Virus record (IMG/VR): IMGVR_UViG_3300045988_102610
Span: 1 to 34,758 of that record
Strand: one strand, 5' to 3'
Length of the DNA stretch: 34,758 bases
Origin: a virus
Position numbers and translations under genes: made by a program. Under the pieces are notes generated by a model that did not search any database, was not told the origin of the DNA, and saw only the letters and a list, made by a program, of their open reading frames with translations. Positions 1-34,758 of the stretch are shown piece after piece; within the stretch, counting starts at the first letter, position 1; every line of letters begins with the position of its first letter.

Positions 1-21
1 GAAAAAATTTTGAAAAAAGGG

Positions 22-50
22 TTGACAAACTACGGGTAAAAGCGTATAAT
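22..50 (+). promoter_or_regulatory. Consensus sigmaA-type promoter, cassette copy A (TTGACA-17 nt-TATAAT); same site as 34669-34697
   Basis: TTGACA at 22-27, 17-nt spacer, TATAAT at 45-50, with an A/T-rich tract upstream. It drives the gene at 111-548. Confidence 0.75.
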
Positions 51-56
51 ATAGAC

Positions 57-81
57 ATAAGGTAAAGGAAACGAACCTTAT
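57..81 (+). promoter_or_regulatory. Leader stem-loop of cassette A (ATAAGGT / loop aaaggaaacga / ACCTTAT)
   Basis: Perfect 7-bp inverted repeat starting about 7 nt after the -10, at the predicted 5' end of the mRNA. Confidence 0.55.
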
Positions 82-110
82 AAATAATAATAATAAAAGA
101 GGTTTTCAAA

Positions 111-548
111 ATGAAAGAAACAATGATTATTGCAATGAACGAATTAATGAACAACAACTATCGTCATTTTAAAGAAGAAGTAAAGAAAAATTTCTTCTGG
201 GATGATATGAAAGATGTTGTCTTTGAAGTTGAAACTGGCTACGACAGATACAAAGATTGGGGTGGTCAAACTTTTAAAAGTTTTTATAGTGCTTACAAAT
301 ATGTTCAAAGAATATTTGCTGAAGCTACTAATGTAACTGCTGAGAAATATGAAACTTATGATGAATATGGTGACGACTATTACAAATACAAAGCTGAAGA
401 TTATGACGGTTACGAAGATGAAAGAGACGAAATCTATTGTCAAATCAATATGTTTTATGATGATGATGATGATAGAGAATATGCTGAAAATCTTTGTTGG
501 TTTGAAAAAATGGATGAAAATAAAATCCTTTTTAAAAATTGGCTATAA
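111..548 (+). CDS. Hypothetical, highly acidic Asp/Glu/Tyr-rich protein (145 aa); candidate DNA-mimic type moron
   Basis: ATG preceded by AAGAGG 8 nt upstream, with its own consensus promoter and terminator. Hand count gives 36 D/E versus 19 K/R, and there is a DDDDD run. No family recognised. Confidence 0.7.
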   Translation: MKETMIIAMNELMNNNYRHFKEEVKKNFFWDDMKDVVFEVETGYDRYKDWGGQTFKSFYSAYKYVQRIFAEATNVTAEKYETYDEYGDDYYKYKAEDYDGYEDERDEIYCQINMFYDDDDDREYAENLCWFEKMDENKILFKNWL

Positions 549-555
549 TAAAAAA

Positions 556-588
556 ACCGGGAAGCCTTCAAGACTTCCCGTTTTTTGC
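556..588. terminator. Bidirectional rho-independent terminator
   Basis: Stem CGGGAAG (558-564) pairs with CTTCCCG (574-580). An A-run lies upstream and a T6 run downstream. Confidence 0.75.
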
Positions 589-590
589 GT

Positions 591-607
591 TCCAATATGG
601 ATAGATT
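591..607 (+). repeat. 17-bp direct repeat copy 1 (tccaatatggatagatt)
   Basis: 16/17 identical to 826-842. Confidence 0.7.
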
Positions 608-825
608 AAAACAATTTCGTTAGATTCTATTCTTACAAAGTTACAAAAAGTTACAAAGATATGAACAAAAAAGAACAAATCAAAGTGAATATAATAAACG
701 AAAGTATAAAAAGTGAATAAAACAAACGAATATATATGCACGAAATTGTAAGTTTGTTATTACTATACACTAATAATTATTATTTGTCAATGACATAACA
801 ATTATTTAATATAGTAAATTTAAAA

Positions 826-842
826 TCCAATGTGGATAGATT
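826..842 (+). repeat. 17-bp direct repeat copy 2 (tccaatgtggatagatt)
   Basis: 16/17 identical to 591-607, 235 bp away, inside the non-coding AT-rich tract. Confidence 0.7.
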
Positions 843-1086
843 TTAAATACAGTTTCATAAAATAAAATTACAAAAATCATTAAATAACTAAATATAAAAG
901 ATTGAAACTGTAGCGCACTTATATAATATATCTTTTGTTTAAATTTGTCAATATAAAATCAAAATAAAAAAAGAGAAGTTAAAAAACTCCCCTTTTTTCG
1001 TTGCAATTTCCATTTTAGAATAGCTTTGCAGAACAATAAGCTACTATCAATATAAGCCATTTTTATATTTTTGTCAATAAAAAAGA

Positions 1087-1124
1087 ACCCGTAACAGTCA
1101 AAAAACTGCTACGGGTTTTATTTT
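1087..1124. terminator. Bidirectional rho-independent terminator (probable end of the late/lysis transcript)
   Basis: ACCCGTAACAG (1087-1097) pairs with CTGCTACGGGT (1106-1116), an 11-bp stem with one mismatch. T-runs follow on both strands. Confidence 0.75.
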
Positions 1125-1161
1125 GCACGAAAAATCTTGATTTTGTTTTAATTTTTAAAAA

Positions 1162-1270
1162 TGTTCAAAAGTTTTTTAAATTGTTCAAATTCTTTTGAAA
1201 TCTGTTCAATAATTTTCAAAATCGTTCGATTTTTGAACGATTTATTTCAAAATTTGAATGATTTTTTCAA
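1162..1270. repeat. Helically phased TT(C/G)AA / TGTTCAA repeat array
   Basis: TT(C/G)AA-type pentamers (one is TTCGA) start at 1164, 1184, 1195, 1205, 1215, 1225, 1233, 1246, 1254 and 1266, about 10 bp apart. TGTTCAA starts at 1162, 1182 and 1203, and CGTTCGA at 1223. Confidence 0.7.
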
Positions 1271-1274
1271 AAAA

Positions 1275-2252
1275 TTACTTAATTAAATAATATTTTGAAT
1301 TGCGGTACATATAATAATAACCTTTATATTTACCGCTTGTAATGTAACAAATAATTGTAAAACGTCGGTCTTTGTCAAGTTGCTTTTTGTAAGCAATTCG
1401 ACTGTTAATAACTCGTCTATATGTTGAGCCTTTACCGACTACGATTGTTCGATATTGTGATAAGCCTGACTTATTAATTCGAGTGTTAACCATATAGCCC
1501 GTTTTACCTTTGTATTTGACTTTGCTCCAACCGTCGCCGACGTCCTTAATAAATTCGATTGTGGCACCTTTCGGAATTTTGGCAATAACGGAACTAGTTT
1601 TGCCGATTTTGTCAATATATTTCTTGCTGTAAAGTGGACATTCTAATTTTGTTTTTACTGACTTTTTTGCTGACTTTGCAAAATTCTTGTAACAGTAATT
1701 GCCGTCGAATTCTTCACCGCCAATATTTAGTTTACTTGTAAATTGCCAAATATCGCAGTCAAAATCCTTATGGCTTGCATACTGAGCGAGCCAAATGCTG
1801 TATTTTGCTTTAAGCTGATTGTAATTAAGATAATTTCCAAACCAATCCGCGTTGGCATATACACCGACTTTGTAGCCTTTCGCTTTTAAGTAATCGCAAA
1901 AAATCGTTGCAATTTTGGTGCAAGTTGTCTTACCTAATTTGGCTTGTTTTGCTTCTTCCATATCAATGTAAATTGGTAATTCAAAAGACTTGTTTTTTAG
2001 CCACTGTGCGCAAACCTTAGCTTCTTTTTTGGCTTCCTCGATATTCATTGCATATGAATACAAATAAGCGCCTACAAGCATTTTGTGAGCCTTTGCGTTT
2101 TTGTAGTTGACTTCAAAAAATGGGTCTTTTTGGCTCGCTACCATTCCGTAACCGGCTTGAATAACAATGCCTTTGACGCCTTTATTTTTCAGCGCTGAGA
2201 AATTAACAACGCCGTTCCATCTGCTGACGTCAACCATTAGTGTTTTACTCAT
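1275..2252 (-). CDS. Endolysin: GH25 muramidase domain plus C-terminal SH3b-type cell-wall-binding region
   Basis: N-terminus DVSRWNG..GVKGIVIQAGYG..GAYLYSYA..PIYIDMEE is GH25-like. C-terminus GATIEFIKDVGDGWSKVKYKGKTGYMVN is SH3b-like. It is the last gene of the late operon. Confidence 0.9.
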   Translation of the reverse strand: MSKTLMVDVSRWNGVVNFSALKNKGVKGIVIQAGYGMVASQKDPFFEVNYKNAKAHKMLVGAYLYSYAMNIEEAKKEAKVCAQWLKNKSFELPIYIDMEEAKQAKLGKTTCTKIATIFCDYLKAKGYKVGVYANADWFGNYLNYNQLKAKYSIWLAQYASHKDFDCDIWQFTSKLNIGGEEFDGNYCYKNFAKSAKKSVKTKLECPLYSKKYIDKIGKTSSVIAKIPKGATIEFIKDVGDGWSKVKYKGKTGYMVNTRINKSGLSQYRTIVVGKGSTYRRVINSRIAYKKQLDKDRRFTIICYITSGKYKGYYYMYRNSKYYLIK

Positions 2253-2441
2253 TATTTTACCACCCTTTCATAAGTTTTCGCGAAAATATCAGGCTTGCAA
2301 GGGTATTTTTCACCTTGCACACCTGTAATAATATAATCGCCTTTTTCTGCTATCATATCGCCCTCAAGCGTATGTATAACAGTTCTTTTTTTCCGCCTTG
2401 TGCGCTTGAACAATTACGGGTTTTTTGACGTATTCAGCCAT
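2252..2441 (-). pseudogene. Small lysis-cassette gene broken by a +1 frameshift in an A7 run (T7 on + strand, 2386-2392)
   Basis: ATG at 2441 (TAATG overlap with the holin stop) reads [25 protein letters not shown] then stops. The +1 frame continues [43 protein letters not shown] and ends in a TAATG overlap with the endolysin ATG. The span is 190 nt, which is 63 codons plus 1 nt. Confidence 0.6.
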
Positions 2442-2638
2442 TATTCTTCCTCCTCAGGCAAACCCGCCACGCTTGTAAGTAGTGATAAGATACCCGCTAA
2501 CAGCGACGCTGAACCGACTGTAAGCCAATCAACCTCGCTCATAACAGCGCTAACACCGACCATAGCTACAGCAGTTTGCGCCACCGTTTTAATCGCGCGT
2601 ACGCCCGCAACTTTGAGCCATTTTGTCCAATTTCTCAT
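2441..2638 (-). CDS. Holin (phi LC3 / LL-H-like small holin)
   Basis: 65 aa with two hydrophobic segments and an acidic tail ending GLPEEEE. The WxxxxxRAIKTxAQTA pattern is present and the RBS is GAAAGGAAG. It lies upstream of the endolysin. Confidence 0.8.
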   Translation of the reverse strand: MRNWTKWLKVAGVRAIKTVAQTAVAMVGVSAVMSEVDWLTVGSASLLAGILSLLTSVAGLPEEEE

Positions 2639-2641
2639 TTT

Positions 2642-2884
2642 TTACTTCCTTTCTTCTTCTAAGTCGTTAATTCTGTGATTAGCGACTTTTATTTCTTCAT
2701 CAATCACGGATAGTCTTTCTTCGACTTTATAAGTCCGTTCGACTACTGTGTTGTGTTTATCAACCTTTTTTTCAAGTTCTTTTATTCTATAAGTTGTTAG
2801 CCTTGTGTTACAGATAATGCCGATAATTGAGCCAATACCCGAGCCGACTAAGCCGATAAGTGCAGTAATTACATCACTTGACAT
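2642..2884 (-). CDS. N-terminally membrane-anchored coiled-coil protein (XhlA-like lysis accessory)
   Basis: 80 aa with a Gly/Ile-rich TM segment followed by a heptad-like charged helix. It is the first gene of the lysis cassette. Confidence 0.5.
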   Translation of the reverse strand: MSSDVITALIGLVGSGIGSIIGIICNTRLTTYRIKELEKKVDKHNTVVERTYKVEERLSVIDEEIKVANHRINDLEEERK

Positions 2885-2890
2885 TTTATA

Positions 2891-5101
2891 TCACTCTCCA
2901 ATCGCTTTTGGCTCGAAATAAACGTGTCCTAACAAAAATTGATAGTCCGACACGTTTCCGCTTGGAACTCTTAATTTAACTTTGCCGTCTGTGCTAATAT
3001 ATATTTTCGCTGTTACACAATCCGCACCCGCAAGCGTCTTACTTAATGTACAAGCAAAAGTTTGATTTGTTAAAGGAAAATAAGGAGACTGAATATAGGC
3101 AATTTCGAGTAGATTGCTAGCACTAATTTGACTTGTAAATTGTAAGCAAAAATCATAATAACATAAGTTATTACGATACTGTAACTTGTTTAATGCTCCG
3201 TCAAAATCTGCTGTAACTTTGAGATTTAAAGTCGGATTAATTTGACTAATAGCGTCACAACCGTCAATATTAATAAAATGATTGTATCCGTTAAAACTAA
3301 TTTGGGCGTCACTAACTGAGCTTAGTACAGCTTTGAGATTCGGCGAATTGAAACTACAATTGTTACAACATATACGTCTTGCGTACGGTTGTATGCCTGT
3401 GCCAAATTTAAACACAACCGGAGTTGTTTCACTGTCATATAAATGATAGTTGTTGTAATACGTACACGCCACGAGTGATAAGTCGTAGCTTGTGCGCATT
3501 AAATAACCGACTTCATAAGTGTCACATTGACATTGAGTTAAAGAACCAAAGCCAGCAAAATGCTCAAAAAAGATTGAATTTGTTACTTTTCCAGTAAGCC
3601 AACCGTGAACCTTGTTATAAAAATTTGTTCCGCCGTTAAAAATACATTTTTGCATATCGACAATAACAATTTCATTAAAATGACAGTCGCTTGTTTGGTT
3701 GAAAATACCTCTACTATTCAAAGCGCAATTACCAATGATTGTACCGTTTTGACATATAAACGCACCGCCTTTTTGCACCCAAATGGCAACAGTTTGACAA
3801 TTTTTAATTAAGAAATTGTCAAGCGTAAACTTAAAAGAATAAATTAAATTAAGTCCGCCAGCTTTATTATTACAATCAAGAATTACATTTGTAAGTAACG
3901 TTTTTACGTCATTACGTATATTATTCTTGCCGTCGTACTTAATCATATAATCAATTGTCTTAATTGCTTTCAAAGTTGCCCAATTAAAATTGATTAAGCA
4001 AACATTTGTATTTGATAAATCGAGTGTATCGCTAATACAATAAGTTTTACCATTTTGACAAATTAATTGTTTCCCTGATTCAATACAAAAATTGATAGCA
4101 CTTTGTAAAGCAGTCGTATCGTCATAGATACCATTACCGACCGCCCCAAATTGTTCCGGAGTTACATAACTCAAATCGTGAGTTGTTAAAAATTCTGTTA
4201 TATTACTATAAGATTTCAAAAAATCAAATTCGTTCATAACAGAAATATTCGATATTGCAACACTAACGTTCGCAATATCAGGCAAATAAATTTCATACAG
4301 ATTTAAGGTTTCAGCAACATCCAACTTAGTTACAAATGTATGTTTATTTCCGTCAGTTATTGCACCAACTTTCCCTAAATCTGTGTAAGTTCCATCAATT
4401 TTAACACCCACATTAAAATCGTTAGTCGCAACATAATCAAAACTTAAATAATAGTTACCTAATTCATCACCTGACAAAACGTCTTTATCAAAAACCCATT
4501 TTGCGCGAACTGTGTTATTTGTTGATGTAGTAATTTTATATACACCCTTAAGAAATTCACCCTTATTTTCTTCATTTGTTGAAGAAAAATAGCCAATTTT
4601 TTCATTATTGATTTTTTCAATAAAATTATTTTTTGAAAACGAACTAATAATTTCGCTTGCATTTTCAATACTGCTTTTCAAGTTCAAAATTGAATTCATC
4701 AAAAATTCATTAACATTGATAAATTCTTCATCATCAGCATACACAACCTTTGTTGTGCTTTCCGTTGCGCCGGTTTCGATAACTCCGCTTGCGCGGTTAT
4801 TATCAACATAAATAGTTTTTAATGCTGTACAGCCCGCAAAAGTGCCACTTTGTACAGCAGTAACACTATTTGAGATAAAAGCTGTAACAATATCCTTTTG
4901 ACCTGTAAAAGTTCCCGCGCTGAAGCTTGTCGCGCGAGTTGAATATTTTAGTATTCCGTCAGCTGTAAAAGTAGCTGAATAACCAAACATTGTAGCGTCT
5001 GTCGCGTTCTTAATGCCCTCGTCCATATGATTAAGATTGTTTGCATTGATGGGCGTTGATGTGTTCGGGCTGTTCTGCCAATTAATTAAGTCGTACCCCA
5101 T
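2891..5101 (-). CDS. Tail fibre / tailspike with LRR segment and pectate-lyase-like beta-helix (putative depolymerase)
   Basis: N-terminus INWQNSPNTSTPINANNLNHMDEGI is a phage-fibre anchor motif. FTGQ..SGTFAGCTALKTIYV is a BspA-type LRR. YVTPEQFGAVGNGIYDDTTALQSAINF is a Pectate_lyase_3-type signature. Confidence 0.8.
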   Translation of the reverse strand: MGYDLINWQNSPNTSTPINANNLNHMDEGIKNATDATMFGYSATFTADGILKYSTRATSFSAGTFTGQKDIVTAFISNSVTAVQSGTFAGCTALKTIYVDNNRASGVIETGATESTTKVVYADDEEFINVNEFLMNSILNLKSSIENASEIISSFSKNNFIEKINNEKIGYFSSTNEENKGEFLKGVYKITTSTNNTVRAKWVFDKDVLSGDELGNYYLSFDYVATNDFNVGVKIDGTYTDLGKVGAITDGNKHTFVTKLDVAETLNLYEIYLPDIANVSVAISNISVMNEFDFLKSYSNITEFLTTHDLSYVTPEQFGAVGNGIYDDTTALQSAINFCIESGKQLICQNGKTYCISDTLDLSNTNVCLINFNWATLKAIKTIDYMIKYDGKNNIRNDVKTLLTNVILDCNNKAGGLNLIYSFKFTLDNFLIKNCQTVAIWVQKGGAFICQNGTIIGNCALNSRGIFNQTSDCHFNEIVIVDMQKCIFNGGTNFYNKVHGWLTGKVTNSIFFEHFAGFGSLTQCQCDTYEVGYLMRTSYDLSLVACTYYNNYHLYDSETTPVVFKFGTGIQPYARRICCNNCSFNSPNLKAVLSSVSDAQISFNGYNHFINIDGCDAISQINPTLNLKVTADFDGALNKLQYRNNLCYYDFCLQFTSQISASNLLEIAYIQSPYFPLTNQTFACTLSKTLAGADCVTAKIYISTDGKVKLRVPSGNVSDYQFLLGHVYFEPKAIGE

Positions 5102-6345
5102 TGTTTTTCTTCAACTCCTTGTCGTTCAGAACTGGTTGTGCTAGCTGTCACGGATAAACCCGCTGTGCCATTTATAGTTCGATTAAATATAGTTGTTGTA
5201 ATTTTTTTAATATCGTCTGCGCCTGTGTCAAGTGTAATCGTGTCGCCCGGTTCAAGCCACCACCGACCGAATAAATTTGCGTTAAATGGTCTAAAGTCAT
5301 AAAAAAGCCAACCACTCAGCAACGAGCCGTTCGGTCTAATTAAATTTGAAATAATAGTGTTTGTCTTGTTAAACGCCGTCAATTTGTTATCACTATCGTA
5401 ATAATTCTTTTTTTCTTTAGTCGCAGAAACATTTTTAATTTGTACATTTTGCGTTTTACCTTTGTTATACGGAAAACGTGCATTTGTAATACTTGCAACA
5501 GTATAACTTTCAAACGTTAAATCTGTGTAGTATTTAACCTCGTAAGGAACTAACTCCATACCCGCTTGCGGTAATCTTAGTATTTTAATCGTGCCGTTTC
5601 CTGTGCAGTACGCAAAATGTGCAGTAATTTCGCAATAGTTTTCTAGCAATTCTAACGCTGTTAATTTTCTATCACAAATATCCTCAACAAGTTGATAACT
5701 TAAATCTAAAGTGTAATTATCGTCACTACCGTATATACTCGTATCAAATGTTATTCCGTTAGATTCTAATATATCTACTAACGTTTCCTTTAAGTCTTTA
5801 ATTGTGATTTTTGGCGAATGATACGCCATACCATAGAACCAATTATAAACATTTATCTTGCTAACTTGATAAAGCTTATCGTAAGCAATAATTTCGCGAA
5901 CGTTTCTGTTCTGTTGTCGTTTACTGCTGTCGATTATGCCTGTAAAGATACACGCGCGAACCGGAACAAGCTTACACGGATACAAATTTGACGCGGGTGA
6001 ATCTACAATTTCCGTTTTTGGGTAGAGTGTATTTGATGGGTATAATTCATCAATATATTTTTGATAAATATACACTTTAATTTCGCGACCGTTTAACTCG
6101 TCGTCAACACCAAATACGCTAATGCTCAATTGTGACGATATGCACCCGCCAAATTTTAGAGTGCTATCATCACAAATAGAATTCGTTAATTCTAACGTAT
6201 CAAGCAAAATATTTTCACTCGTTAGCGTTTTGGTTTTTTTGTCGGTGAACTCAATTAATAAATCAATTGATACAGTATTATCAAGCAATTTTTGTTTTAT
6301 TGCTAAATCTTCCGTCGTATCATTGCTAAACATATACATATACAT
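5086..6345 (-). CDS. Tail-associated protein (Tal / prophage-tail hub-like)
   Basis: 419 aa, located after the Dit-like gene and before the fibre. The start may instead be ATG 6339 or 6333 (MYMYM). Confidence 0.55.
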   Translation of the reverse strand: MYMYMFSNDTTEDLAIKQKLLDNTVSIDLLIEFTDKKTKTLTSENILLDTLELTNSICDDSTLKFGGCISSQLSISVFGVDDELNGREIKVYIYQKYIDELYPSNTLYPKTEIVDSPASNLYPCKLVPVRACIFTGIIDSSKRQQNRNVREIIAYDKLYQVSKINVYNWFYGMAYHSPKITIKDLKETLVDILESNGITFDTSIYGSDDNYTLDLSYQLVEDICDRKLTALELLENYCEITAHFAYCTGNGTIKILRLPQAGMELVPYEVKYYTDLTFESYTVASITNARFPYNKGKTQNVQIKNVSATKEKKNYYDSDNKLTAFNKTNTIISNLIRPNGSLLSGWLFYDFRPFNANLFGRWWLEPGDTITLDTGADDIKKITTTIFNRTINGTAGLSVTASTTSSERQGVEEKQWGTT

Positions 6346-6353
6346 TCACCGCC

Positions 6354-6761
6354 TTAATATTCGATTAACTCAATCGTAATCGGATTATACTGAATATCTT
6401 TGCTTGTGCTGTCAACGTCCATTATTGTATATTCGACATCAGCAATATAAAAATAACCTGTTTTGTATGTGTTATCCTCGTCGTTCCAGTACGTCACCTT
6501 GCATTTACGTTGTGCAGAATTAACCATACCGGCATTAATTACGCTTTGCATTTTAATTTTTTCGTTCAAGCTTAAAATGTGAGTTGATAAATTAATGCTT
6601 GTCTTTGTACTGTTTAACGTCTTACGCTGTAAAGTACCTGTATTATCCCTATCAGCTGAACTTTCAAGGCGTTGATTTGGCGTTGAGGAGTACTCTAATA
6701 TGTAAGCATTAGGAAAAACCTTGTCGCCGAATTTCAATAAATATCCTTTGTAATTTGCCAT
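6354..6761 (-). CDS. Distal tail protein (Dit)-like, short form
   Basis: 135 aa, immediately downstream of the tape measure, with RBS GAAAGGGG. Called from position only. Confidence 0.45.
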   Translation of the reverse strand: MANYKGYLLKFGDKVFPNAYILEYSSTPNQRLESSADRDNTGTLQRKTLNSTKTSINLSTHILSLNEKIKMQSVINAGMVNSAQRKCKVTYWNDEDNTYKTGYFYIADVEYTIMDVDSTSKDIQYNPITIELIEY

Positions 6762-6774
6762 ATCAACACCCCTT

Positions 6775-9700
6775 TCAAATTAATCTTGATTTACCGTTGT
6801 GGCGTTTTTTATCAAGTTCATTTTGTCTAACCATTTCTTCAAATAGTTCTTTGCCGTTCAGCTTTGCGACGAATTCGTAACTATTACCGCCGTTATTTCT
6901 AAAGACCATTAGCAATTCATACAACCGTTTTAAATACGCCAAAATTTCCGCTTGTGTCGCTGTATCTGTACTATTATTGTTATTAATAATACTTTGCAAT
7001 TTGTTGAGCGGTGCAACTACTTCAGGATTGCCTGTGCTTGCTCCCACATTATCACCAACAACCGCGAGAGTTGGAGCCTTAACAAGTCCGCCTTTCGCCA
7101 ATTTCGGTATTTGTGGAATATCAAAACCGAATTTTTTACCGCCAATCGCGGGAACCCATTTCGGAACGTCAAAACTAATCTTATTGACGCCTTTAATTAG
7201 CGTGTTAAGTCCATCAATCAAAAAATTAATTGGTGCCTTAATAAAGCTAATAATGCCGTTAAACAAGTTCTTGAACCATTTACCGACACCGGTAAACGCT
7301 TTTTTAATCGCATTCCACGCACCTTTGAAAATGTTTCCGAACCACTCAGAAACGCTTGTAAACGGTGCTTTAATTCTGTTCCACATTCTGCGCATTGTTT
7401 TTGATACACTCTTATTTTGTGAATTAACGCCAATTAAAAAGCCTTGTGCGGTGTAACGTCCGATTTTTTGCATTACCTTTGACGGTGAGTGTATGCCTAG
7501 TGTTTTCTTTGCTTGGTTTATGTATTTTGTTGCTAATTCATTTTTGTTCGTTACTAGCTTTTTTGTGTATTCATTTGTTCCCTTTTCAAAGCCAAGACAA
7601 ACATTTTCACCCGATTTTTTAGCTTCTTTTTTTAGCTGTCCTAAAGATTTTTTAGTGTTCTTTTGCACATCATCAAGCGAAATTAAACCTTGATTGTAAG
7701 CAAGTAAAACTGCTGACGCGTCTTTATAGTTACCGTTCAATACACCTTGCATTTTTGAAAGTTCAGTTGTTTTTGTTTCAAGTTTGGCGTAACTAGCTAA
7801 CGCGTCCTTGTAAGGTTTTTCAACTTTTGATAGTTGTTTAGTGTAGCTGTTAAGCGTTGCTACTGCTCCTTGATACTTTGTATGTGTTGTCAAGTACCCA
7901 CTATCTGTACCATATGAATTTGGTTCACTGTTTTCATACCATATTAATGTATTTTTCAGTCTTTTAACTTTTTCGTCTTGCTTTTTGAGCTTTTGAATGT
8001 ATTTATCGTAATCGTTTTCGGCTTTGTTTAGTTCGGTTTTTGCCGATATTTTTGATTTCGTTGTTGTTGTTGCTAAATCGCTAATGGCTTGTTGATTAGC
8101 TAAATTCTTGTACTGTTCGATAGTCTTTTTAATTTCGGCACGAATAGTTTTTTGATTGCCTTTAAGCTTAATTGTGCCGTTTTTAGACACTTGAACATAA
8201 TTGTTCCACACCTTTGCAAAATTCGGAACGTTGTCTTTAAAGTACTTAACGATAGTGTTAAGTTGTCCCGCTTCCTCAGGTGTTAACGTTGCTTTCTTTA
8301 ACAGTTCATCAAGCTTTTTTTCGTACCCGTCAATTAAAGCGTTATCGGTGTAAACCTTGTCCAAACTGTCCATAGTTTCCGTTAAGGTTGTTTCTATATT
8401 ATCTTTAGCTTTTTCCAAATTGGATGAAAGTTCATCTATTTTTTTCGCGAATTTTCCCGCTTCTGAGGCGCTCCAAGTCAGCTGATTATATGTTCGTACA
8501 GCTGTAACAATAGCACCAATAGCTGACGCAAAGCCGAGAAAAACAGCAACAGCGGGATTTTTATTGATGAAATTAAAAAATAGACTAATAGCGCCCCTAA
8601 CTTTATCAATTCCGCTTGCGATTGTTCGTCCCGCTTTAAATACTACAATAGCAGTACCGACCGCACCGAGCGCACCCGCAATCGCACTAATATCGCCAGC
8701 ACTCATACCGTTTATAACCTGACTAACAAAATCTAAAGCGTCGCCGAGTGCTTCAACTAATTTCGGAACTGCTTTTTCAATTGTCCATTTCGCAAGAGGT
8801 AACAAGACATCTTTATAAGCTGTTTTCAACTTTTCGCCAATCGCTTTTAGTAGCTTTCTAAACGCGCCTGTAAGCTTTTCGATTGATGACATAATCGGGT
8901 ACAAGTCGAGATTTTCGAGCCAATCAAGGTGAATTTTCGACATATCAGCCACCCACCCCGTTATATCTTCAACAATACCGAGAATATCACGCCAAATTTT
9001 CTTACCCAATTGGTTCTTGTTCCAAGCGATTGTTATACGCTGTCTTAGCGCTGTAACTGAGTTATTACAGTTGCGTATAATCTTTAAAATATTAGTCCAA
9101 ATTCTAACGCCTGTTCCGTCGCTCCATACTTTGCCGAAATCGCGCGCTATAACGTCAATTAGACGAATTAAGCTGTTAACCCTATCCATAATAGATTGGA
9201 TAACCTCGTCGCCTAGTCCGCCTTTTTTCCACGCTTTAGTAAAAGCTTCTGCAATTAAGCCTATATCGTCAATACAATGTTTTAGTAATCGACGTATATT
9301 AGTTAAAATCTTATCGCCTGTGCCGTTTTTCCAAACCTTTACCCAAGATTGACCGATTGTACTTACTGCGTCTTTGATTTTGCCAAAGGTATTCTTTATA
9401 CTGTTAACAACGTCACGATACTTATTTAAAGCCTTGTCAATTGCTTTATTGCTCGTTTTTGGCTTGCCTGAAACCGTGCTAGAAGGTGTTGAATTGTTAG
9501 CGATTGAACCTGTACCGCTTGCGCTACTACTTGTTAACACGTTCAGCTTATCAAAACCCGCAAGGCTTTTTTTAGCTTTTTTCGCACTATTAGAAATGTT
9601 CTTAATCGCGTCAGAACTGTTATTAGCTTCATTTGTTAAGCTTGAAGCTGATTGAGTAGCTTTGTCGATTGAATTAGAAGTGCTTTCACTACTTGTATTT

Positions 9701-31754: not shown

Positions 31755-31820
31755 TTAATCACATCCTTTTTGTTGTGTTTGTAATACTTTTTTGTCGTTC
31801 TCTTTCGTATCACTAATCTT

Positions 31821-31848
31821 ATTATACCATATAATGTAGGATTGTCAA
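31821..31848 (-). promoter_or_regulatory. Leftward early promoter (TTGACA-16 nt-TATAAT)
   Basis: The -35 is at 31848-31843 and the -10 at 31826-21 on the minus strand. It is back-to-back with the repressor promoter. Confidence 0.65.
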
Positions 31849-31882
31849 CACAAAATTTAATATTTTTTATTCTTTTTTTGTA

Positions 31883-31911
31883 TTGACAACCCGACAACAA
31901 AATAGTATAAT
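31883..31911 (+). promoter_or_regulatory. Rightward repressor promoter (TTGACA-17 nt-TATAAT)
   Basis: TTGACA at 31883-88 and TATAAT at 31906-11. It is followed by AAAGGTGGTGA and the ATG at 31944. Confidence 0.7.
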
Positions 31912-31943: not shown

Positions 31944-32303
31944 ATGACGGACGCGGAAATTATCTATTCCATTCGTAAAGCGTTGAACCTGAGCCGGGCT
32001 AAATTCGGCGAGAAAATCGGCGTCAGCGAAAGCGTAATTAAAAATATCGAGTTACGTGGGAACAAGGTAAAACCGTTGATGGCGGATTTGATTTGTAAAA
32101 TTTACAACGTAAATCAAGCCTATATCGAGACGGGCGAAGGTGATATGTTTACTGTGTCGGACGATTTCATACTTGACGAAGTAAAAGAAATCTATGAGTT
32201 AACCGACCAACAGTTACAAATCATTAAGAACTTCCTCGAACTCGACGACGACGGAAAAGAAATGGTGATTGAAACCGCGAAATCTTTAGCTAAGGATTTA
32301 TAA
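31944..32303 (+). CDS. XRE-family HTH repressor (CI-like), without a peptidase S24 domain
   Basis: IRKALNLSRAKFGEKIGVSESVIKNIELRGNK is an XRE HTH. The protein is 119 aa in total, with only an acidic helical C-terminal part of about 50 aa. Confidence 0.8.
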   Translation: MTDAEIIYSIRKALNLSRAKFGEKIGVSESVIKNIELRGNKVKPLMADLICKIYNVNQAYIETGEGDMFTVSDDFILDEVKEIYELTDQQLQIIKNFLELDDDGKEMVIETAKSLAKDL

Positions 32304-32388: not shown

Positions 32389-32423
32389 ATAAAAAAAGCG
32401 AGTAACTTAAATGTTGCCCGCTT
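32389..32423 (-). terminator. Rho-independent terminator of the 71-aa gene
   Basis: On the minus-strand RNA, AAGCGGGCAAC pairs with GUUACUCGCUU (one G-U and one mismatch) and is followed by U7. Confidence 0.6.
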
Positions 32424-32429
32424 TACTTA

Positions 32430-32645
32430 TTAGTATGAAGCTACTGTATCGTAACTATTACAAAATACCTCGCCTTGTTCCCAATTACAAATACGCGCCC
32501 TTTTCTGTTCGCTTGTTCTTTCGTTGCTTCTTCCCTCGTGTTGAATAGTAACAAATGTTACTGTTTTCGCTGTTCTTTTAATGATTTCATAAGCAACGCC
32601 CGCGCCTGAAATATCTTTGTATCTTTTTCCAACTTCAAATTTCAT
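32430..32645 (-). CDS. Hypothetical 71-aa protein driven by cassette copy B
   Basis: ATG 32645 has the same AAAAGAGGTTTTCAAAATGAAA context as the gene at 111. Sequence MKFEVGKRYKDISGAGVAYEIIKRTAKTVTFVTIQHEGRSNERTSEQKRARICNWEQGEVFCNSYDTVASY. No family recognised. Confidence 0.65.
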   Translation of the reverse strand: MKFEVGKRYKDISGAGVAYEIIKRTAKTVTFVTIQHEGRSNERTSEQKRARICNWEQGEVFCNSYDTVASY

Positions 32646-32672
32646 TTTGAAAACCTCTTTTATTATTAATAT

Positions 32673-32698
32673 TTGTAAGTATTTCCTTTTCCTTACAA
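32673..32698 (-). promoter_or_regulatory. Leader stem-loop of cassette B (TTGTAAG / loop gaaaaggaaata / CTTACAA on the minus strand)
   Basis: Perfect 7-bp inverted repeat at the same position as the cassette A hairpin, but with different arm sequence. Confidence 0.55.
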
Positions 32699-32702
32699 TT
32701 AT

Positions 32703-32731
32703 ATTATACGCTTTTACACGTAGTTTGTCAA
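32703..32731 (-). promoter_or_regulatory. Consensus promoter, cassette copy B (TTGACA-17 nt-TATAAT)
   Basis: The minus strand reads ttgacaaactacgTgtaaaagcgtataat, which differs from copy A by one base. Confidence 0.75.
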
Positions 32732-32970: not shown

Positions 32971-33004
32971 GCATAAAAAAATAGCTAGTCTAACGACTAG
33001 CTAT
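32971..33004 (-). terminator. Rho-independent terminator of int
   Basis: ATAGCTAGTC pairs with GACTAGCTAT in a perfect 10-bp stem with loop TAAC. It spans the int stop codon and is followed by T6 on the minus strand. Confidence 0.85.
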
Positions 33005-34561
33005 TAACGCGAAGGTTTTAAGCACTGCGGACGATATTAAATAACCGCCAGACGGTGCGACTACCTTTGGCTTTGGCTGAGCGGTGTCGGTAGTAGTCGC
33101 ACCGCTTATGTCTTTTAACATATCATTATAACTAACTTTTTCAGCTTCTTTGAAGCCGTTATAATAAATAATAATTTTATCATCAAATACATATATAGCA
33201 TTGATAAATGTATCAATAATTTGTTTTTGAAACTCTTTATCTCTAATATTTCCGTTCGTAACATTCTTGATAAATTCAACAACATCAGACACATTCATTT
33301 TAGCTTGCGATATTGATTTTTCACGCGCTATCTCTAATTCGAGTTCGTTCAATTCAATGTCGATTTGTTCAATTTCTTTATTCAGCTTATCCAACATACG
33401 CTCATTAGTTGTCTTTAGTAATGCGTGTGATAATTCGTCGAATTTAGCTTCTAAGCTGTTTTTATTTTCTTCTAGTGTAGTTAAATGATTGTCGCCAAAT
33501 TCGCAATTGTACAAATCTACAACTTTCTGTGCCACTTCTTTAATAAACTTTCTGTCGCTATACATTTCAAGCGTTTTGCGCACAATTATTTCTTCAAGTT
33601 CTTCTTGTCTTTCTCTTTTTTTATTGCAATTATTTTTGTGAAATTTTTGGTTTCTGCATACATAGTAACCAAATTTTACTCCGTGACGTCCTGTTGATGT
33701 TTCGCCAGTTATCGAAGCTCCGCAATATCCGCAAAATAATTTTGTTGACAATAGATATTCGCGCTTATACGAGCGCGCACCGCCTTGACGCTTATTTTTC
33801 GTCAAAATGTTTTGTACCGTGTCGAATAAATCAACGTCAACAAGCGCGGGAATAACGTCTTTAATCGTAATATCTTGATAATTATATTCACCGATATATT
33901 TTCGATTTTTTAGAAGCCTATCGAGTGAGCTAAATGCAAATTTGGTTCCTTTTTTGTTTCGCCAACCTTTTGCGTTTAAATCGTTTATAATCTCTTTTTT
34001 TCCTTTGCCGGACGCGTATTGAGTATAAACATATCTTACAATTTCCGCTTCTTTCTCATTGATAACGTAACGCTTATTAACGACGTCATACCCGAGCGGA
34101 GCGGTACCACCGCAAGACAAACCGTGTCTAACTGATTCGCGCATTCCTCGTCTTACATTCTCGCTCAGCTGTAGACTATATGTTTCCGCCATTGCTTCTA
34201 AGATTGATTCCAACAAGACACCTTCCGAGCCTTCCCCAACAAATTCGGTCACGGATAACACCCTAACTCCGCATTTTTTAAGCTGATTTTTATAAACCGC
34301 GCTATCATAACGATTACGCGCAAATCTGTCTAATTTCCAAACAAGTATATATTTAAACTGTTTATTTTTGGCGTCACGTATCATTTGTTGAAACTGCGGG
34401 CGCTCGTCAGTCGTTCCGGATATAGCCCTATCCGAATACACGTTGATAACCTTCATTGCGTTGCGTTCCGCGTAGTCCTTGCAATATCTCAATTGACCGT
34501 CAATACTTTGTTCTTGTTGATTGTGGCTCGAAAATCGCGCATAAATAACAGCGTTTTCCAT
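32990..34561 (-). CDS. int: Large serine recombinase (phage integrase)
   Basis: ATG 34561 follows AAGAGG. The resolvase-type N-terminus is AVIYARFSSHNQQEQSIDGQ..DRFARN. A recombinase domain (GGTAPLGYD), a zinc ribbon (CGYCGASITGE..YYVC) and a C-terminal coiled-coil are present. 523 aa. The track N-terminal extension is read-through of the promoter cassette. Confidence 0.95.
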   Translation of the reverse strand: MENAVIYARFSSHNQQEQSIDGQLRYCKDYAERNAMKVINVYSDRAISGTTDERPQFQQMIRDAKNKQFKYILVWKLDRFARNRYDSAVYKNQLKKCGVRVLSVTEFVGEGSEGVLLESILEAMAETYSLQLSENVRRGMRESVRHGLSCGGTAPLGYDVVNKRYVINEKEAEIVRYVYTQYASGKGKKEIINDLNAKGWRNKKGTKFAFSSLDRLLKNRKYIGEYNYQDITIKDVIPALVDVDLFDTVQNILTKNKRQGGARSYKREYLLSTKLFCGYCGASITGETSTGRHGVKFGYYVCRNQKFHKNNCNKKRERQEELEEIIVRKTLEMYSDRKFIKEVAQKVVDLYNCEFGDNHLTTLEENKNSLEAKFDELSHALLKTTNERMLDKLNKEIEQIDIELNELELEIAREKSISQAKMNVSDVVEFIKNVTNGNIRDKEFQKQIIDTFINAIYVFDDKIIIYYNGFKEAEKVSYNDMLKDISGATTTDTAQPKPKVVAPSGGYLISSAVLKTFALIASR

Positions 34562-34628: not shown

Positions 34629-34647
34629 TAGTTTTTCGAAAAAAATT

Positions 34648-34758
34648 GAAAAAATTTTGAAAAAAGGGTTGACAAACTACGGGTAAAAGCGTATAATATA
34701 GACATAAGGTAAAGGAAACGAACCTTATAAATAATAATAATAAAAGAGGTTTTCAAAA
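34648..34758. repeat. Terminal overlap copy 2 (identical to 1-111)
   Basis: Same 111-nt string as the window start. The window ends on the A of the ATG of the gene at 111. Confidence 0.9.

Follow-up and report, generated by a model that had tools for sequence, protein, structure and literature searches.

What is a short stem-loop doing at the head of two transcription units that share almost everything else in their control regions? The question is raised by a 34,758-nucleotide (nt) viral contig (IMG/VR record IMGVR_UViG_3300045988_102610, positions 1 to 34,758; hereafter the window), which carries two copies, A and B, of a promoter-leader cassette, each with a perfect 7-base pair (bp) stem shortly after the −10 box and with the loops described for them in a first-pass annotation of the contig. 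That annotation missed the context that we found to be decisive, namely that the cassette is an acr-aca-like control region, of the kind that governs anti-CRISPR (acr) and anti-CRISPR-associated (aca) genes, and that it holds a separate inverted repeat in the promoter spacer as an operator candidate. For the hairpin itself we tentatively favor, at a probability of roughly 0.4, a role as a 5'-terminal protective stem-loop on the mRNA of a portable anti-defense and high-expression cassette.

The two cassettes share a 29-nt core promoter, at 22-50 on the plus strand in A and at 32731-32703 on the minus strand in B, with one mismatch (G/T) and no match in shuffled sequence, as well as an identical 28-nt block around the ribosome-binding site (RBS; 89-116, plus strand, and 32667-32640, minus strand), both as the first-pass annotation had reported and neither expected by chance. 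The cassette A promoter agrees with consensus at 12 of 12 positions (−35 TTGACA at 22-27, 17-nt spacer, −10 TATAAT at 45-50) and follows A-tracts (1-21, the same as 34648-34668), while in cassette B the promoter occupies 32703-32731, with its −35 at 32731-32726 and its −10 at 32708-32703. Each leader ends in an A/U-rich, unpaired spacer with the Shine-Dalgarno (SD) sequence AAGAGG: 82-110 in A, where the SD (97-102) stands 8 nt before the ATG at 111, and 32646-32672 on the minus strand in B, with the SD at 32659-32654. The promoter search matched a third site, 34669-34697, which is no additional cassette but copy A once more. Because bases 1-111 equal 34648-34758 at 100% identity (repeat search, family D1), the genome is 34,647 bp long and either circular or terminally redundant, with the contig running slightly past one full turn, and cassette A, found also at 34669-34758, is one locus read twice. 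As a whole the cassette is a portable high-expression module composed of an A-tract, a consensus sigma-A promoter with an operator-like repeat, a 5' hairpin, an unstructured A/U-rich spacer and a strong SD.

Folding predictions indicate that both copies of the module probably start their mRNAs with a small hairpin. Hairpin A (57-81, plus strand) pairs ATAAGGT (57-63) with ACCTTAT (75-81) around an 11-nt loop (64-74, AAAGGAAACGA), has a predicted stability of −5.8 to −5.9 kcal/mol (RNAfold), and begins exactly at the predicted transcription start, A57, with a pairing probability of 0.84-0.98 for the first five nucleotides. Hairpin B (32673-32698, minus strand) pairs TTGTAAG (32698-32692) with CTTACAA (32679-32673) around a 12-nt loop (32691-32680, GAAAAGGAAATA) and reaches −5.6 kcal/mol with all seven pairs. 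The predicted start of cassette B, G32696, places its two outer T-A pairs upstream of +1, and in the RNA hairpin B probably has five pairs if transcription starts at the seventh nucleotide after the −10, or six if it starts one nucleotide earlier. The earlier statement that the stem register had shifted while its length was kept is thus correct for the DNA and doubtful for the RNA. Similarly, the proposal that structure and not sequence is conserved was right in that the stem is kept, and overstated the divergence, as the two leaders can be aligned over their whole length, differ by 9 substitutions and a single 3-nt indel, and have TAAGG, AAAGGAAA, CTTA and AAAT in common. Perfect stems of 7 bp or more that start within a given 6-nt interval are found at 1.3% of positions in the window and in 0.2-1.4% of shuffled leaders. 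Cassettes A and B are not independent of each other in this respect, because both descend from one ancestor.

Several familiar roles for a leader hairpin were set aside. SD sequestration and an RNA thermometer were ruled out, since the SD and AUG are unpaired in the minimum free energy structure of the leader. An intrinsic terminator or attenuator was rejected, as the stem is A/U-rich, is followed by AAAUAAUAAU without a U-run, and is absent from the terminator scan. We dropped a CI operator, as the hairpin has no similarity to the CI switch region, and a CsrA site, as there is no second GGA at the SD when the sequence is read directly. A palindrome around the −10 of one allele (CGTATAATAATATACG) was judged to be a by-product of the TATAAT box. 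Rfam gave no match at gathering score over the whole window and nothing at E≤1 overlapping either cassette.

We then compared the leader among about 60 related loci (designated below by L numbers), gathered by exact-protein look-ups with payload B, a 38-residue open reading frame (ORF) and relatives of the repressor and integrase, and by pattern and protein scans of viral contigs. The pattern scans of viral contigs yielded three relatives (L001, L003/L008 and L057), whereas GACAAACTAC..AAAAGAGGTTTT, when scanned against JGI metagenomes and GTDB genomes, matched only at chance level, except for a related promoter without the hairpin (L028); the informative relatives were those obtained by exact-protein look-up. 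The loci hold 13 distinct leader alleles, joined to 13 promoter variants and to seven different payload genes whose products begin MKETMII, MKFEVGK, MKELVKT, MTSEELK, M[TK]EFKVM, MKYYVIG and MTIQNKK. All 13 alleles form a stem of 5-8 pairs on a TAAG/YTTA core, which is thus retained despite the seven payloads and two unrelated promoter spacers. With predicted starts at the sixth to eighth nucleotide after the −10, 0-3 nt separate the 5' end from the first base of the stem, the sole exception being two B-type alleles with a +8 start; the stem ends 27-29 nt before the ATG, and its predicted stability ranges from −3.8 to −10.7 kcal/mol.

The ways in which the alleles differ are informative. GTAAGGT/ACCTTAC (L057, L077) departs from window hairpin A only in an A-T to G-C pair. 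The double substitution that the first-pass annotation had noticed is real and lies at the pair flanking the TAAG/CTTA core; in TGTAAGGT/ACCTTATA (L082) this pair, A-U in window A and G-C in others, is G.U, the expected intermediate. TTTACAA replaces CTTACAA at 6 loci, giving a G.U at a core pair, and TGTAAGGT-AAAGGAAA-GCTTTACA (L036) contains two wobble pairs. Insertions on both sides of the stem in L010 pair with each other as GATAAG/CTTATC. The purine-rich loop motif has been lost from TGTAAGG-TAAAT-CTTTACA (L057) and TGTAAGGT-AAA-GCTTTACA (L075, L077), each of which keeps a stem of 7-8 bp; the earlier suggestion that a purine-rich loop is presented to an RNA-binding regulator is not supported by these alleles, in which the loop is dispensable. 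In a hand tally over the 13 alleles, four of four transitions in stem columns preserve pairing (G-C to G.U at the core pair, A-U to G.U to G-C, and U-A to U.G at the top pair), and broken pairs are always terminal. All the wobbles are G.U in the sense strand, where the antisense strand would have A.C and duplex DNA would be asymmetric, which favors, as far as the alleles indicate, a constraint at the level of RNA. An A-type leader precedes payload B in L017, and leaders and payloads therefore recombine.

The formal support for covariation is weaker. In a 10-allele alignment, 84% of cells pair, as compared to 32-51% when the 3' partner is slid, and RNAalifold returns a 6-pair consensus; its covariation term is only −0.22 kcal/mol, a single pair has both partners substituted, and scores as high as the observed one arose in 58 of 500 shuffles. 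MAFFT misplaced two items, the L010 allele and the 3' T of the L082 allele, which we tallied by hand and kept out of this count. The covariation to which the first-pass annotation had looked in homologous cassettes is consequently not significant. Its preference for an RNA role over a protein operator fares better: such a role is the more likely of the two for the stem, given the varying arms and spacing, the sense-only wobbles and a stem that begins at the predicted +1 in every allele, although this weak covariation adds little.

A hairpin of unrelated sequence is found at the head of another message of the same phage. The early lytic promoter (31848-31821, minus strand), which belongs to the CI switch and has no sequence relationship to the cassettes, is followed by a 7-bp stem (31781-31813, minus strand; GUGAUAC at 31813-31807 with GUAUUAC at 31787-31781 around a 19-nt purine-rich loop) that starts 0-2 nt from the predicted start. 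Its only changes among relatives are G.U to A-U and U-A to U.G, while its loop varies at several positions. The predicted transcript of a small-RNA-like unit with its promoter at 1077-1049 begins with a hairpin too, whereas the repressor promoter and three other promoter-like sites have none. Counting the two cassettes once, three of seven strong promoters have a 5'-terminal hairpin, compared to 9.7% of random positions (binomial p=0.024), a pattern suggesting that this phage uses 5'-terminal stems generally, whether or not a regulator specific to the cassette is involved.

We favor the 5'-protective reading because the stem starts at the predicted +1, leaves the spacer and SD free, tolerates loss of its loop and changes only in pairing-compatible ways, and because the early transcript has an unrelated counterpart. 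Transcription would start at, or no more than 3 nt from, the first base of the stem, leaving the 5' end base-paired; in Bacillota such an end would be expected to hinder pyrophosphate removal, 5'-exonucleolytic attack by RNase J1 and 5'-end-stimulated cleavage by RNase Y. The longer life of the message would then produce a larger burst of payload protein. As the stem leaves the SD and AUG free, it would not gate translation, and repression, where present, would act at the TACG-N8-CGTA repeat of the promoter and not at the hairpin.

A number of observations weigh against this reading. The stems are short and A/U-rich: the common G.U allele is weak (−3.8 kcal/mol), and cassette B with its most likely start has only five pairs and −4.0 kcal/mol (40-nt fold). 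The whole leaders of 61-63 nt fold only 1.3 standard deviations better than shuffles. Few independent events lie behind the substitution pattern, as the alleles are those of close relatives, and covariation is, as described above, not significant. Stems are kept in all of the close alleles, but more distant homologous leaders before AcrIC5-like genes (L097, L099, L092) have weak stems or none (−1.1 to −3.6 kcal/mol) while keeping the sequence motif GTTAA[AGT]GGAGATAC; the homologues thus divide on the stem, which the first-pass annotation had taken as a point of decision. Finally, the invariance of the TAAG/YTTA core could mean sequence-specific recognition and not structure alone.

Several of these observations would also fit a stem that has no selected function, a short palindrome that an A/T-rich leader has inherited and that is carried along with the selected promoter and RBS. 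The whole-leader z-score of only −1.3, the frequency with which comparable 5' hairpins occur at random positions, the lack of significant covariation, the loss of the stem in distant homologues and the small number of events separating alleles that also recombine (as in L017) all agree with it. It accounts poorly for the 85-90% conservation of the leader among cassettes in which, apart from the repeat arms, the promoter spacers show no relationship, for pairing that is kept in four of four cassette and two of two early-transcript transitions (p~0.016 at an expectation of 50%), and for stems that stay intact after loop deletions or, as in L010, gain insertions that pair. We consider this alternative unlikely.

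If the hairpin protects the message, repression would be expected to act elsewhere in the cassette, and the promoter spacer offers a candidate site. The inverted repeat TACG-N8-CGTA lies at 31-46 in cassette A (TACG 31-34, CGTA 43-46, overlapping the −10) and at 32722-32707 on the minus strand in cassette B (TACG 32722-32719, CGTA 32710-32707), and the predicted start follows 11 nt after it. None of the 13 promoter variants departs from these arms, although the eight bases at the center differ; when the A-type spacer is compared with the C-type, 6 of 6 arm positions agree, as against 2 of 11 elsewhere (Fisher p=0.002). In C-type spacers the repeat is extended to arms of 8-9 bp, as TTATACGT-N6-ACGTATAA (L036, 1635-1663) and TTATACGTG-N4-CACGTATAA (L076, 372-400). 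AcrIC5-like loci of other phages have different repeats in the same place (TATACAGC-N4-GCTGTATA, CCGCAC-N3-GTGCGG and CCACCAAATTGGTGG), and repeats between the −35 and −10 are the known operators of Aca13 in Streptococcus elements (PMC12282945). The TACG-N8-CGTA repeat is likely an operator, judging by its position and conservation, which an Aca-like helix-turn-helix (HTH) protein might bind, and it is a better operator candidate than the hairpin.

Sister phages supply both a payload and a regulator that fit this assignment. At the A position in L057 and L077, the cassette drives a 68-residue protein of the AcrIC5 family (Pfam PF22147 AcrIC5, E=7.6e-19, 68 bits against a cut-off of 27; AcrIC5 structure PDB 7YHR, E=1e-5), followed by a 63-residue HTH protein of the XRE family, an operon that is by its predicted products of the acr-aca type. 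In L082 and L083 the cassette drives a 92-residue acidic protein and the 63-residue HTH, and a second cassette drives a 103-residue protein. The ENA contig ERZ28569356 scaffold_693 (L009), which matches the window at 100% identity throughout the two fetched stretches of 3.5 kb and 3.4 kb, carries between two identical copies of the cassette an extra 1,399-bp unit consisting of a cassette, a 50-residue acidic protein, a 280-residue protein and the 63-residue HTH (L009, 1160-1351). Comparison of L009 1-1430 with window positions 34640-34758 and 1-120 located the site of this unit, and the window phage is the form without it. Cassette copies would act as direct repeats, and recombination between them would be the obvious route by which units are gained and lost. 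We found no homologue of the 63-residue HTH in the window, and against PDB it has only generic XRE matches, such that no named Aca family can be assigned.

Payload A (111-548, plus strand; 145 residues, isoelectric point 4.4) and payload B (32430-32645, minus strand; 71 residues, isoelectric point 9.0) have no match in Pfam, PHROGs or PDB sequence searches. A single-sequence AlphaFold2 model of payload A was unusable (predicted local distance difference test score, 47), and that of payload B (score 68) gave nothing at E<0.001 in Foldseek against PDB. A homologue of payload A follows the gene for the 92-residue payload in L002, and payload A adjoins the HTH unit in L009; payload A is also acidic, as are the 50-, 68- and 92-residue proteins. 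The cassette is the control region of an anti-defense gene set, to which payloads A and B belong as candidates by association.

The presence of an HTH gene behind the cassette in sister phages raises the alternative that the hairpin is an RNA site for that same Aca-like XRE protein, which would repress at the spacer repeat and, as for Aca2 and Aca1, lower translation, be titrated by the RNA or alter mRNA turnover. The sister operons with the AcrIC5-family gene or the 92-residue protein and the HTH, the HTH unit between cassettes in the otherwise identical scaffold_693, the invariance of the TAAG/YTTA core in 13 of 13 alleles and a layout that fits published acr-aca regions (PMC13551039) all speak for it. 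However, both hairpins of the window are perfect although the window has no HTH homologue (a loss that may be recent), and the cassettes of one and the same genome vary in stem sequence, stem length and loop size. The stem in the RNA does not resemble the repeat in the DNA, the unrelated hairpin on the early lytic transcript favors a general role, the HTH could be assigned to no named Aca family, and the published Aca10 and Aca12 RNA motifs have not shown binding (PMC13551039). RNA binding by the HTH is the main alternative, if an improbable one, and we note that a protective stem and an HTH-binding site are not mutually exclusive. A broader version seems doubtful to us to much the same degree: the cassette would be a dual DNA/RNA control module of an unnamed Aca family, whose HTH binds both TACG-N8-CGTA and the +1 hairpin and co-regulates up to three cassettes per genome, and recombination at the identical cassettes would in addition exchange, add or remove payloads.

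The sequence AAAGGA is complementary to 6 nt of the 3' end of 16S rRNA, the anti-SD, and it is present in the loop of 11 of the 13 alleles. The purine-rich, SD-like TAAGG..AAAGGAAA might then itself be the active element, a STAB-SD or polypurine stabilizer at which 30S binding blocks 5'-to-3' decay and which the stem merely presents. Stemless distant leaders keep an SD-like GGAGATAC in the same place, and the cryIIIA STAB-SD and the SP82 polypurine stabilizer provide precedent (cited in PMC3997798 and PMC7509114). However, the loop motif has been deleted, and the stem kept, in alleles h and i (L057, L075, L077), where the remaining AAGG is base-paired, which makes this explanation very unlikely. 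Least credible is that the inverted repeat works in duplex DNA, as an operator at +1 where a phage or host repressor would form a roadblock: a perfect 7-bp inverted repeat directly downstream of the −10 and the usual repression of anti-defense promoters via inverted repeats would suit it, but arm spacing ranges from 3-5 to 20 nt among alleles (11- and 5-nt loops within L057 alone), the arms differ between cassettes with no conserved half-sites at fixed spacing, the C-to-T allele (6 loci) and L082 break the DNA symmetry while keeping RNA pairing, there is no sequence in common with the CI switch region, and the spacer repeat is the better candidate.

The cassette stands close to several known systems. 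Recently described acr-aca regions have a DNA repeat in the promoter, a start 10-15 nt downstream, a hairpin right after the start that ends about 20 nt before the start codon, and motifs common to several operons, and mRNA stability is listed by the authors among the possible roles of such 5' untranslated region (UTR) motifs (Feussner et al., 2026, Nucleic Acids Research gkag862, PMC13551039). The cassette resembles the 5' UTR hairpins associated with Aca2 and Aca1 and those predicted for Aca10 and Aca12 in its strong promoter with an inverted repeat and a predicted start about 11 nt on, in its single hairpin directly after the start that ends about 27-29 nt before the start codon, and in the repetition of the module before neighboring anti-defense operons, which in sister phages encode an Acr-family protein followed by a small HTH. 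It differs in that the window phage lacks the HTH and its payloads have no family match, in that the HTH of its relatives could be assigned to no named Aca family, and in that covariation is not significant and stem and loop vary within one genome, in a low-GC gut Bacillota host. Because sister phages use the module for an anti-CRISPR gene and its regulator, the cassette is a further example of this control region and not a new kind of element.

The classic 5' stabilizing stem-loops (the Bacillus subtilis aprE leader and ermC, Escherichia coli ompA and papA) likewise combine a stem at the extreme 5' end with an unstructured leader and a strong, unoccluded SD (PMC3997798, PMC7509114); the cassette stems, likened to them from sequence alone, are shorter and weaker and belong to a mobile cassette common to several phage genes. 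As in the STAB-SD and SP82 elements, an SD-like purine run stands near the 5' end of a Bacillota phage or toxin mRNA, but the cassette has it in the loop of a hairpin, and two natural alleles do without it. The Aca13 and Aca11 operators of Streptococcus elements are also inverted repeats between the −35 and −10 of Bacillota acr promoters, with one regulator serving more than one operon (PMC12282945), a comparison that concerns the spacer repeat and not the hairpin and that holds by layout and not by sequence relatedness. Finally, the units resemble prophage morons, small single genes with their own promoter and terminator that adjoin integrase or lysis modules and are gained and lost between near-identical phages, except that all cassette units use one promoter-leader module that is also a recombination substrate.

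Moron-like organization is evident in the window, where payloads A and B are both single-gene units adjoining the integrase and closed by intrinsic terminators. Payload A ends at a bidirectional terminator (558-580, both strands; terminator scan and sequence), and payload B is followed by a terminator-like hairpin and T-run at about 32390-32425, identified by eye. Cassette A separates payload A from the integrase and stands back to back with the promoter of the latter, and cassette B (32731-32646, minus strand) lies between the repressor and the 38-residue ORF downstream of the integrase. In phages of this group the cassette precedes small accessory genes at both prophage ends. The payload at the B position is the 71-residue gene, an unrelated 65-residue gene or none (L042, 1900-1960; L036, 1617-1990), and a deletion in L042 runs from the promoter spacer to just beyond the payload terminator hairpin, between short ACGTAAAT-like repeats. 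Between payload genes of cassette operons there is also a conserved G+C-rich hairpin, AGCCACC[C]-N4/5-GGGTGGC[T], with no U-run and a different loop at each of its three sites (L057, 7627-7650; L009, 278-298; L002, 2965-2985).

Another phage group duplicates its own acr-type promoter-leader module (operator CCGCAC-N3-GTGCGG; L099, 1975-2060 and 2426-2520; L097, 491-570), with copies ahead of a gene resembling AcrIC5 and of another small gene, so that loci of this type may often contain duplicated cassettes. In many viral contigs of about 16 kb (L101-L123, IMG/VR 3300045988) the AcrIC5-like gene comes first, adjoining the contig end, and in two of about this size (L116/L117 and L118/L119) it stands at both ends, which suggests terminal repeats.

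The genome itself is that of a temperate siphovirus-type phage of a low-GC gut Bacillota host. Its nearest cultured relative by large terminase is Solobacterium phage SMO_1P (63%), contigs related to it originate in human-gut metagenomes, and megablast of window positions 1-8000 against the phage collection gave no near-identical match. The minus strand carries the early genes, packaging, morphogenesis and a GH25/SH3 endolysin (1275-2252; Pfam/PHROG). A large serine integrase (32990-34561, minus strand; Pfam Resolvase, Recombinase and Zn_ribbon_recom, PHROG 95 integrase) is divergent from cassette A, and a CI-like HTH repressor (31944-32303, plus strand; Pfam and PHROG searches) is convergent with payload B; the CI switch region (31821-31911) has no repeat in common with the cassettes. 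The junction of phage and host DNA in L001 is at GCTCAGCCA, where a tRNA-Gln gene (L001, 111-186) has its 3' end. The same junction sequence is found in the window at 33074-33082 on the minus strand, about 30 codons short of the stop of the serine integrase, and the attachment site therefore seems to lie inside the integrase ORF, such that integration would cut off the C-terminal end of the enzyme.

The small-RNA-like unit mentioned above lies in a gene-poor stretch between payload A and the endolysin (549-1275, minus strand), which has near-consensus promoters at 1077-1049, 951-923 and 790-762, terminators at 1117-1086, 999-966 and 580-558, and as its only ORFs 568-741 (minus strand, 57 residues) and 1161-1286 (plus strand, 41 residues). 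The stretch resembles a set of small-RNA units, the first with a transcript of about 80 nt, and contains the motif ATCTATCCANATTGGA twice, at about 835-815 and 600-585.

To a specialist the hairpin itself would be unsurprising, and it is the reusable cassette, the natural allelic series and the unannotated payloads that are of moderate practical interest. Whether such hairpins protect the 5' end or bind a regulator is left open in the literature even for Aca1, Aca10 and Aca12 (PMC13551039), and the natural alleles described here (loop-deleted, G.U intermediate, with and without the HTH) could separate the two. Used as a search marker, the cassette should find unannotated anti-defense genes, including the two candidates in the window; if the dual DNA/RNA module were true, payloads A (145 residues) and B (71 residues) and the 50-, 65-, 92- and 103-residue proteins would be new anti-defense candidates. 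If our reading is true, the acr-aca control layout extends to uncultured phages of human-gut Bacillota, in which a single promoter-leader module would be reused for at least seven small payload genes.

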